Part shown: piece by piece, positions 10,448 to 17,917 of the stretch | How positions within the stretch are numbered: position 1 is the first letter of the stretch | How the letters are laid out: each line of letters starts with the position of its first letter | Origin: Candidatus Sulfomarinibacteraceae bacterium | Lineage (GTDB): Bacteria; Acidobacteriota; Thermoanaerobaculia; Thermoanaerobaculales; Sulfomarinibacteraceae | NCBI GenBank assembly: GCA_963796455.1 | Contig: CAWCLO010000004.1 | Coordinates: 960,001-1,024,000 of the forward strand | Reading direction: 5' to 3' | DNA length: 64,000 bases | Made by a program: the position numbers and the translations under genes | Notes under the pieces: model-generated | What the model was told of the DNA's origin: nothing | Seen by the model: only the letters and a program-made list of their open reading frames with translations | Databases searched by the model: none

Positions 10448-10466
10448 GAATTGGGCAGAGGAGAGG

Positions 10467-10530
10467 GAGCAGAGGAGCAGAGGAGCAGAGGAGCAGAGGA
10501 GCAGAGGAGCAGAGGAGCAGAGGAGCAGAG
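10467..10530. repeat. Tandem octamer (GAGCAGAG)x8
   Basis: Eight exact copies, flanked by the inverted pair GGGCAGAG (10453-60) / CTCTGCCC (10535-42). Confidence 0.95.
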
Positions 10531-10613
10531 GAGACTCTGCCCTTATCACGTTGGTCGACCCGCGATGATCTCCCTTTCCCCTCATACCCAGCCGAATCGG
10601 TGGGTCTTTTCAA

Positions 10614-15972: not shown

Positions 15973-16749
15973 ATGGCAATTCGAGAGGTCATTGAAATTG
16001 ACGAAAAGCTCTGCGACGGCTGTGGAGACTGCGTCACCGCATGTGCCGAAGGTGCGATCGCGATTATCGACGGCAAGGCCAAATTGATCAGTGATGTTTA
16101 TTGCGACGGCCTCGGAGCCTGTCTCGGCCACTGCCCTCAGGGAGCTCTCAAGGTCATCCATCGCGAGGCCGACGAGTTTGATGAATCAGCGGTCGAGCAG
16201 CACCTGAAGGGCATGGGGCAGGGGAGAAATCCTGTGGCACCAGCACCTGTTTTTGGTGTCGTCGGTCAAAACCCGATGGCCGGAGGCGGTTGTCCCGGTT
16301 CCCGACCCCAGGTGATGAGCCCCACCCAGGATCCCGCCGTCGCCGCCGGGCCCGGCCCCGCCTCACAGCTCGGACATTGGCCGATTCAGCTCCATCTCGT
16401 GCCGCCCACCGCGCCCTTCTTCCAGAATCAGAATGTGCTCCTGGCCGCAGACTGTGTGGCATTTTCGGTCGGCGATTTCCATCAACGCTATCTGCAGGGA
16501 CATTCCTTGGCCATCGCGTGCCCGAAACTTGACAGCAATCAGGAGATCTATCTCCAAAAGCTCGTCGCCATGATCGACGAGGCGGAGATCAAGAGCCTAA
16601 GTGTCATGGTCATGGAGGTCCCGTGCTGCGGAGGGCTGGTGCGTCTGGTCGAGGAGGCGCTCCGAAGGTCAGAGCGGCAGATTCCGGTCGAATGCCTGGT
16701 AGTGGGCACCCAGGGACACATCCTTGGTGAGTACCAGATCGCCGGCTGA
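15973..16749 (+). CDS. 4Fe-4S dicluster ferredoxin-like protein (type often associated with hcp)
   Basis: CDGCGDC..AC, CDGLGACLGHCP, GGCPGS, WPIQLHL, AADC, ACPKLD, MEVPCC. Confidence 0.85.
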   Translation: MAIREVIEIDEKLCDGCGDCVTACAEGAIAIIDGKAKLISDVYCDGLGACLGHCPQGALKVIHREADEFDESAVEQHLKGMGQGRNPVAPAPVFGVVGQNPMAGGGCPGSRPQVMSPTQDPAVAAGPGPASQLGHWPIQLHLVPPTAPFFQNQNVLLAADCVAFSVGDFHQRYLQGHSLAIACPKLDSNQEIYLQKLVAMIDEAEIKSLSVMVMEVPCCGGLVRLVEEALRRSERQIPVECLVVGTQGHILGEYQIAG

Positions 16750-16789
16750 TACAATCGGGTCGTTCGATGAGCGGCCCGAGGAGAATAGA

Positions 16790-17917
16790 ATGAGAGACCG
16801 ATTTGGCACCGTCCTAACCGTGGTGGTGCTGTTTTGTGCGGTGGCGTCTGCGCCGCCAGTCGTGGCCCAGGATGAGGGAAAGACCTTATTCTGGGTCGAA
16901 AATTCGACTGTTGAGATCGGCAAGGTCATTGCCGGCCGACCTGCTTCCGCCACATTCCTTTTCCACAACGACGGACCGGAGGATGTCCACATCATTCGGG
17001 CGAAACCTTCCTGAGGATGCACGGTGGCCGAGTTCGACTCGGTCATCCCGGCAGGTGGGTCGGGAACGCTGCGGGCGGTGATCAAAACAAGCGAACAACA
17101 AAGCGGCGTGTTTTCGAAATCGATCAATGTCCAGACCGATGCCGCGGATGCCCGGACTCTGGTCTTGCGATTGCGCGCCACAATCGACCAGCCCATCGTG
17201 GCAAAACCCCGCATGTTTCTTATCGTCACCGCGACCGAAGGCGAAGAGCTGCGAGGAGGTCTTCTGCTCCACCGGGCCGATGGTGTTCCCCTCGATATCT
17301 ACAGTGTGTCCTCCGGAAACCCACTGTTCAAACCGCGGGTCGAAAAGGTCGAGAAAACAAAGGAATTCGACGGGAGGGAAGGTCTGCCTGGAGATATATG
17401 GCTCGAGGTGGTCGGTGATGCAACCCTTGCTGCGGGAACCACGAAGGGCACCCTTCGCCTGGAAACAAATCATCCGGATGTTTCAAAGCTCTCGATTCCC
17501 TATACGATGCGCGTCCGCCCACTGATCACTCTTCGACCGGACGTCGTGAGAATGTGGCCGACCTCATCGACCGAAACCGTCGGTCGAGTTGCCGTCGTCG
17601 GTCTCAACCGAAACGACGGGATCGCCTTTTCGATCACTGACATCGAGGTTTCACATCCGGATCTGTTTACCGTGTCGGCCATTTCGACAAAGGCCGGTCA
17701 GCAACAACAGATCATGGTGGTTTTGGCCGAGAATCTTGCAAGCGACGACCTCGTCGGGAGCGTGGACGGGAGGATCACGATTCGTACCGACGATCCCCGA
17801 AAGCCGGTCATTGATGTTCCGGTCATCGTGGCCCGCAACCGGACTCAATCCCGGCGCCCGCCGAGAGCTTTTGTGCGGAGTCAGACAGCGGCGACTACGA
17901 ACCCGGCAGCGCGCTGA
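16790..17917 (+). CDS. Secreted DUF1573-like (Ig-like) protein, probable selenoprotein (TGA 17012-17014 = Sec)
   Basis: RBS GAGGAG and signal peptide. ORFs 16724-17014 and 17024-17917 share a frame and join as KPS-[TGA]-GCTVAEFD, matching the family S-C-G-C-T motif. Hairpin follows the TGA. Confidence 0.75.
17025..17045 (+). promoter_or_regulatory. Putative bacterial SECIS hairpin
   Basis: TGGCCGAGT-TCG-ACTCGGTCA 9-bp stem starting 11 nt after the in-frame TGA. Confidence 0.5.

Follow-up and report, generated by a model that had tools for sequence, protein, structure and literature searches.

A DUF1573-type gene of a Sulfomarinibacteraceae bacterium with a probable selenocysteine codon and two conserved downstream hairpins

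Introduction

Standard ORF calling divides one gene of a Candidatus Sulfomarinibacteraceae bacterium (phylum Acidobacteriota) into two pieces, 16724-17014 and 17024-17917, separated at an in-frame TGA. Coordinates are those of the window, that is, the whole stretch of 64,000 nucleotides that we analysed (GCA_963796455.1, contig CAWCLO010000004.1, positions 960,001 to 1,024,000, forward strand). An earlier note on this DNA took the two pieces for a single hidden, secreted selenoprotein with one SECIS-like hairpin after the TGA. Is the TGA a selenocysteine codon or a stop, and, if it is recoded, which element of the mRNA would direct the recoding?

Results and discussion

A reading frame that continues through a TGA

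The TGA occupies 17012-17014, within CCT TCC TGA GGA TGC ACG GTG at 17006-17026 (P-S-U-G-C-T). As the earlier note had it, the two called pieces share one frame across this codon, and sequence and joined translation agree: with TGA read as U, the frame runs from the ATG at 16790 to the stop at 17915-17917 and encodes 375 amino acids. The ribosome-binding site that had been placed ahead of the upstream piece is found as GAGGAG. The gene comprises the following features:

16790..17917, + strand: whole gene, 375 amino acids with TGA as selenocysteine (sequence, translation)
16778..16783, + strand: ribosome-binding site GAGGAG, 6 nucleotides 5' of the ATG (sequence)
16790..16867, + strand: predicted signal peptide, residues 1-26, with a basic start, a hydrophobic core and cleavage near the junction of VVA and Q (sequence, hydropathy, orthologue N-termini)
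17012..17014, + strand: in-frame TGA, predicted selenocysteine 75 (sequence, homologue comparison)
17018..17020, + strand: Cys77 codon (alignment, residue count)

Residues 5-22 are the only strongly hydrophobic segment of the protein by hydropathy, and the N-termini of orthologues resemble that of the window's gene. Both observations are consistent with the signal peptide proposed in the earlier note; its predicted cleavage site was read from the sequence. A scan for promoters and terminators gave no signal exceeding those of shuffled sequences.

Selenocysteine machinery and genetic code

Profile searches of the genome recovered selA (394 bits), selB (317 bits) and selD (348 bits), all above cut-off, together with a tRNA-Sec of anticodon TCA (UCA; 76 bits), the sole TCA tRNA of the 55 called. 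The selD gene is frameshifted near its 3' end in the assembly: at G000:C10:115035-115874 (L018; G000 is the genome of the window), its frame shifts near locus position 2370, just ahead of the DPQTSGG motif. Since ten of 11 selD matches from the same genus are full length, the eleventh stopping at a contig edge, this frameshift is likely an assembly indel. The same selD has a long N-terminal extension and an N-terminal motif with Cys, not TGA. Among the 61 related genomes, selA was found in 60 and tRNA-Sec in 55.

TGA is the commonest stop of the genome and closes 2637 of the 3865 training frames. UGA thus normally terminates translation here, and recoding would be site-specific, with an unchanged code. 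A code of the table 4/25 type, or a second UCA tRNA, was ruled out by stop usage and tRNA calls.

Conservation of the TGA codon among homologues

Among the best 30 loci in 61 related genomes, the window's own gene included, the codon is TGA in 29 and TGC in one. Protein identity at the TGA loci is about 34-50%; at 28 of them the downstream frame stays open for 287-329 codons, at the remaining one for 186. The TGC locus (L105) is sister to the window's gene within the TGA clade (SH-aLRT 97 on a quick tree from which the motif region was excluded), and its genome retains selA and tRNA-Sec; this is compatible with a recent change from Sec to Cys.

The codon can be followed much farther. The profile NF041425 has matches in 157 of 301 genomes of the phylum, a tally that takes in one unpublished genome (G084), and 39 of the approximately 150 matches listed across the phylum carry one TGA (counted by eye). 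We fetched 21 of these 39, all from other genomes of the phylum; in every one the TGA takes the place of the first Cys of C-G-C. A Desulfatiglans-centred phylum search gave 18 TGA-bearing loci among 33 fetched, again with this placement in 18 of 18. All nine TGA-bearing matches above the NF041425 cut-off have it at the same codon. The identical codon is thus TGA in two phyla. A protein collection added three more full-length Cys forms. On the quick tree the TGA/Cys label changes six times, three of these changes being forced by strong branches; because the sequences are related, the TGA/Cys counts, like the hairpin counts below, overstate independence. A further count, Cys in 82 of 83 homologous loci, was not used as proof, since those loci had been found with the C-G-C pattern and the count is biased.

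Two other sets of relatives deserve mention. The same genome encodes a Cys paralogue of the three-domain protein (L022, G000:C10:645136-646122; 27% identity), located between genes that look Mpl-like and TsaD-like by their sequences. In three related genomes (L166, L170 and L176), the TGA-bearing DUF1573 gene has a further DUF1573-like gene, with a C-S-C motif, downstream of it.

Could the TGA nevertheless be a true stop, a pseudogene mutation, a sequencing error or a codon read as Cys or Trp? The assembly does have indel-type breaks elsewhere, in selD and in a Prx-like gene at C5:108090, and 68 of 78 matches in public protein sets are called as fragments that begin after the motif. However, no alternative letter is listed for 17012-17014 in four sequencing runs, and one 151-nucleotide contig, from a run possibly related to the source sample and hence not surely independent, is identical across the codon. 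Retention of TGA in 29 of 30 orthologous loci at such low identity, with long open frames downstream, and its recurrence at the same codon in two phyla also argue against these readings, as do the tRNA-Sec being the only tRNA with a UCA anticodon and the rank of TGA as commonest stop. We consider all of them together very improbable.

The sel machinery and the 29 TGA loci against a single TGC make selenocysteine read-through in a DUF1573-type protein very likely, and SelB would very probably deliver Sec-tRNA(Sec) to the in-frame UGA. The central claim of the earlier note, a hidden secreted selenoprotein, thus draws support from the frame, the machinery genes and the interchange of TGA and Cys, selenium incorporation being a prediction. 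Of the checks it had proposed, those on the genome, the homologues and the reads came out in its favour: selA, selB, selD and tRNA-Sec are encoded (selD with its frameshift), homologues carry TGA or Cys codons at this position, and the reads agree with the assembly. None of the three observations it had named as fatal, a genome devoid of sel genes, reads with TGC, TGT or TGG, or homologues with neither Cys nor TGA, turned up.

A member of a listed selenoprotein family

The Pfam family PF07610 (DUF1573) matches residues 36-131, spanning the TGA, at 58.3 bits against a cut-off of 26.1. The same stretch is matched by NF041425, 'OS_HP2 family (seleno)protein', at 63.9 bits (55.4 in the genome scan), below the cut-off of 100. 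In their tables, reviews include a 'DUF1573 domain-containing protein, UGC' among known selenoproteins (PMC9312934, PMC13188914), and OS_HP2 is listed by Zhang and Gladyshev 2007 (PMC1976440); from the NF041425 match and the review tables, we infer that the two are the same family. The window's protein has a PF07610 match above the gathering cut-off, a U-G-C whose TGA aligns with a conserved Cys, and the Sec machinery in its genome. Given the Pfam match and the review listings, we regard it as a member of the listed family, on a branch outside the strict NF041425 model. It shares the Pfam domain, the U-G-C and the TGA codon with the entries of these tables and of NF041425 (PMC9312934, PMC13188914, PMC1976440), but scores under the NF041425 cut-off and represents a three-domain branch of Thermoanaerobaculia-like Acidobacteriota whose proteins are cut after the motif in public sets. 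One correction to the earlier note is that the family already stands on published selenoprotein lists; the protein alone is ordinary.

Two conserved hairpins follow the UGA

The earlier note described one hairpin, 9 bp long and SECIS-like, 11 nucleotides past the TGA. This hairpin is real and conserved, but it may be only half of the signal. A second one, immediately downstream, had been missed:

17025..17045, + strand: hairpin 1, +11 to +31 after the TGA, loop UCG or UUCGA (folding, consensus fold, covariation)
17047..17064, + strand: hairpin 2, +33 to +50, loop AGGUGG starting 38 nucleotides past the TGA; candidate SelB-binding hairpin (folding, consensus fold, covariation)

Hairpin 1 consists of the 9-bp stem TGGCCGAGT-TCG-ACTCGGTCA, beginning at the 11th base after the TGA. 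Taken alone, its folding energy does not stand out from shuffles (z -1.82; 12 of 200 shuffles are equally good). Among 20,000 TGA triplets sampled from the genome, a stem of at least 10 bp occurs at the hairpin-1 position in 0.85%, and a near stem of at least 10 bp combined with a distal G[G/T]-loop hairpin in 0.055%.

Comparison of orthologues brings out both elements. In the 29 TGA orthologues, synonymous-codon identity is 0.53-1.0 at nine codons between +5 and +17, whereas it averages 0.36 over 116 other codons; this nearly frozen stretch exceeds the length of one hairpin, and the consensus fold of the TGA orthologues consists of two adjacent hairpins. Covariation was assessed on 19 diverse TGA genes lacking indels in the hairpin stretch. 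In hairpin 2, two-sided changes affect four of the seven pairs and 85% of cells are paired, above all slid controls; hairpin 1 covaries too, with 73% of cells paired. Both hairpins lie within the energy limits in 65 of 68 TGA genes from two phyla (30/30 in the own family, 18/20 among other Acidobacteriota and 17/18 in the Desulfatiglans-centred set) versus 19 of 119 Cys genes, many of which were chosen via the motif pattern. GGT encodes the Gly of loop 2 in 41 of 49 TGA forms but in just 6 of the 104 Cys forms; of 918 Gly codons farther downstream, 151 are GGT.

Some features of hairpin 2 are shared with Cys forms. The GG of its loop is dictated by a Gly that these forms also conserve, and 61 of the 119 Cys forms reach -7.5 kcal/mol or better at the hairpin-2 position. 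Over 50 nucleotides, the Cys orthologue L105 retains a folding energy of -23.7 kcal/mol. Farther from the window's gene, GGU appears in loop 2 of 7 of 18 Desulfatiglans-centred TGA genes, and GGT in 13 of 20 phylum-wide TGA forms. A supposed link between G-U in loop 1 and a weak hairpin 2 was dropped, being true for just two loci (L184 and L179). An Rfam search of 16900-17200 found no SECIS family and a single chance match (E 0.57).

Other TGA-containing genes of the genome

For comparison we used 13 other TGA genes of the same genome. Seven are AhpC/TSA genes, 14 of which were matched in the genome, half of them with TGA: C4:241721(-), C10:125796(+), C4:219925(+), C4:458690(+), C1:1155944(+), C5:108090(-) and C1:54568(-), all in G000. 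Six of these seven have a G[G/U]-loop hairpin 16-23 nucleotides downstream; the gene at C5:108090(-) is apparently frameshifted 26 codons past the TGA. A genome-wide TGA scan gave 228 candidates, mostly false, and served only to pick examples: 13 were picked by eye (the target included) and six kept for the hairpin comparison, four of which match known selenoprotein families. A first dicodon filter for TGA genes was abandoned because it scored the true gene near zero.

TGA-bearing DUF3179, deiodinase-like, PrdB/GrdB-like and CMD-like genes lie at G000 C1:471309(-), C2:119611(+), C1:356707(+) and C7:105182(+), respectively, each with a consensus-type hairpin. Two further genes with such a hairpin are unmatched in Pfam and NCBIfam at E 0.001: C4:602301(-) (L187), encoding an exported protein with U-G-H-C, and C10:138225(+) (L191), encoding a small protein whose one hydrophobic stretch precedes GVPT-U. 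A short frame at C7:20724(+) (L192), which ends WPT-U-TAWLYGTGCTG, has a strong hairpin after its TGA and no family match; this TGA could be an ordinary stop.

Fit to the bacterial SECIS model

The bSECIS model, as given in PMC10778597 and in PMC13188914 (in part in its Fig. 2 legend), describes one stem-loop with a loop of 3-9 nucleotides, a stem of 4-16 bp, a spacing of 16-37 nucleotides, an energy of -7.5 kcal/mol or lower and a G within the first two loop positions. Like this consensus, the elements described here are stem-loops in the coding region right after UGA, hairpin 1 fitting the distance and hairpin 2 the loop and energy. Unlike it, they are two adjacent conserved stem-loops, and neither minimum-energy hairpin agrees with the model in every respect.

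Hairpin 1 agrees in size, spacing and energy (loop 3, stem 11, spacing 19 nucleotides, -15.5 kcal/mol). Its loop, UCG or UUCGA, does not: a G within the first two positions is found in none of the 30 own-family genes. The loop varies among orthologues (UUCGA, UACGA, CACGA); it has a G in its first two positions in 7 of 19 other Acidobacteriota forms, and in the Desulfatiglans-centred set 9 of 18 TGA genes have no G in it. If the top G-C pair opens, G comes first in the loop, which would then agree with the model. The earlier note had remarked that this loop differs from that of the E. coli fdhF SECIS; compared with the bacterial consensus, loop 1 is off throughout the own family. Hairpin 2 agrees in loop, stem, loop G and energy (AGGUGG, stem 7, -10.9 kcal/mol), but its spacing of 38 nucleotides is 1 nucleotide outside the range. 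This spacing is 38-39 nucleotides in all 30 own-family genes and 37-43 across the three TGA sets; once the length of hairpin 1 is subtracted, loop 2 comes to lie at 13-26 nucleotides.

An N?G[GU] loop in a near hairpin is found in none of the 30 own-family TGA genes. Of the other Acidobacteriota TGA genes, 2 of 20 have it under a strict rule and 5 of 19 under a looser one. In the 13 other TGA genes of the genome, this near loop is present in 12, at 16-23 nucleotides, and a far hairpin in none; six of the 13 had been chosen with a hairpin filter, and six of the seven unfiltered ones have the near loop.

Which hairpin would bind SelB?

The misfit of loop 1, the fit of loop 2 and the near N?G[GU] loops in 12 of 13 other TGA genes together point to hairpin 2 as the SelB site and to hairpin 1 as a spacer. 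We put forward tentatively, at slightly below an even chance, that SelB would bind hairpin 2, with its G-rich loop 38 nucleotides away, and that hairpin 1, by folding out about 21 nucleotides, would bring this loop to the usual distance from the ribosome. Against this reading count the loop-2 Gly and the folding that Cys forms share, the low GGU count in the Desulfatiglans-centred set, the near N?G[GU] loops of some other Acidobacteriota, the G-first loop that hairpin 1 can adopt and the kinship of the sequences. A possible reason for a displaced hairpin lies in the protein: the residues directly following U-G-C would not accommodate a G[G/U] loop, and on the bipartite reading the SelB hairpin would be placed farther downstream. 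Extended to the whole DUF1573/OS_HP2 family, the proposal is a natural bipartite SECIS, present in at least two phyla, with a SelB hairpin 37-43 nucleotides downstream on P-[P/A]-G codons and a spacer hairpin that folds out about 20 nucleotides; this generalisation is conceivable but slightly more doubtful.

Alternatively, selenocysteine may be inserted with hairpin 1 itself as the SelB-binding SECIS, its loop being non-consensus or partly opened, while hairpin 2 plays an auxiliary part, by pausing the ribosome, stabilising the mRNA or offering SelB a second site. We hold this for a serious contender that falls short of an even chance. It accounts well for the position of hairpin 1, at +11 with the usual loop spacing of 19 nucleotides, for its covariation and for its greater strength in the own family (median -13.2 versus -11.7 kcal/mol for hairpin 2); opening the top pair would supply a loop starting with G, and hairpin 2 sits just 1 nucleotide beyond the published 16-37 range, as given in PMC13188914. 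What it accounts for less well is the free variation of loop 1 (UUCGA, UACGA, CACGA), without a G in half of the Desulfatiglans-centred genes, in a genome whose other TGA genes, in 12 of 13 cases, have an N?G[GU] loop.

The proposed displacement of hairpin 2 would have a parallel in an engineered system. Su, Li and Gladyshev reportedly found in 2005, with a 3'-UTR SECIS engineered in E. coli, that a distant SECIS is functional when base pairing brings it near the UGA. The principle would be the same as proposed here, although that construct was artificial. A literature search, mostly outside subscription journals, found no published two-hairpin or distant bacterial SECIS, and the rows listed in the BSepDB supplement include none for DUF1573 or OS_HP2. 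Reviews do state, in their passages on SECIS diversity, that some bacterial selenoprotein genes misfit the model and that further classes must exist (PMC13188914, PMC13326102); according to one of these passages, a canonical SECIS is present in 87.4% of bacterial selenoprotein entries and absent in the remainder (PMC13326102).

Predicted fold and function

An AlphaFold2 model built from 73 alignment rows has a mean pLDDT of 96.6 and is an all-beta chain. The strand pattern and fold matches predict three beta-sandwich domains, in line with the periplasmic multi-Ig-like protein of the earlier note:

16886..17191, + strand: domain 1, DUF1573 (PF07610), predicted PapD/ASH-like beta-sandwich with U75-G-C77 in a four-residue inter-strand loop (Pfam, model, fold match)
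17192..17521, + strand: domain 2, predicted beta-sandwich (model, fold match)
17522..17839, + strand: domain 3, predicted beta-sandwich (model, fold match, profile match)

Over about 100 residues, domain 1 aligns with domains of the PapD/ASH/MSP type (Z 10-12, rmsd 2.0-2.6 A), and the whole chain resembles HYDIN-type arrays. Domains 2-3 are matched by P. gingivalis 2QSV (profile, E 5e-5), the nearest solved relative by profile; a PDB sequence search with the single protein gave no significant match, and the ESM Atlas returned DUF1573/HYDIN-like clusters only. The beta-sandwich fold is thus shared, by domain 1 or by domains 2-3, with HYDIN, the VesB Ig-like domain, pilus chaperones and 2QSV, but identity is 7-19% and a common fold is no proof of function. 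To our knowledge, none of these proteins has a U/C-G-C site. The relevant passages of the family listings (PMC9312934, PMC13188914, PMC1976440), like the DUF1573 passage of PMC10434189, give no function.

The U75-G-C77 loop is probably exposed. Cys77 is invariant in 73 of 73 aligned rows and is the sole further cysteine of the mature protein; among Cys, His and Met columns, only those at positions 75 and 77 are invariant. Selenocysteine usually stands in for a redox-active Cys, and small CxC rings readily exchange disulfides. We venture, as a best guess that we would place a little short of even, a site of thiol-disulfide exchange in the cell envelope, on a substrate-holding scaffold: after export and cleavage of the signal peptide, U75 and C77 might cycle between the selenol/thiol and selenenylsulfide states and engage in disulfide exchange with envelope proteins that the beta-sandwich domains hold, a mechanism to which we give the same tentative standing. 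CxC motifs are also known to bind soft metals, and U-G-C could instead bind one such as copper, in an envelope carrier or scavenger. A His at residue 228, present in 43 of 73 rows, would suit such a role, but no further His, Met or Cys is invariant, and the 69 neighbouring frames scanned contain no copper-protein family and one DUF3347 match only. We rank soft-metal binding behind thiol-disulfide exchange and consider it unlikely.

Gene neighbourhood

Gene neighbours, in the 69 frames scanned and at the orthologous loci, gave no pointer to pathway or function. The upstream Fe-S gene lies beside 20 of the 29 orthologous loci and the downstream radical SAM gene beside 18; both are absent beside 61 Cys homologues, and more distant TGA forms have unrelated neighbours. 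We dropped the neighbourhood as a functional clue, as the pattern looks like genus-level synteny. The gene directly upstream (15973-16749) encodes a 4Fe-4S dicluster protein with additional ACPKLD and MEVPCC motifs; beside the 20 orthologues it is joined by a cupin and a LarA-family gene. Elsewhere in the window, at about 10460-10540, a short intergenic tandem repeat encodes EEQRSRGA several times.

Implications

For annotation, the cost of the in-frame TGA is plain: 68 of 78 database matches lose the signal peptide, the active site and the Pfam match. The DUF1573 selenoprotein family was already known; what its two conserved hairpins add is a variation on the bacterial SECIS that can be tested. 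If our proposal is true, the bipartite SECIS would be a definable class within the 12.6% of entries lacking a canonical SECIS in the tally of PMC13326102. A displaced SECIS would also relax the design rule for selenocysteine placement in recombinant proteins. The DUF1573 family offers a concrete and widely conserved candidate for a non-model bacterial SECIS, testable by a simple reporter.
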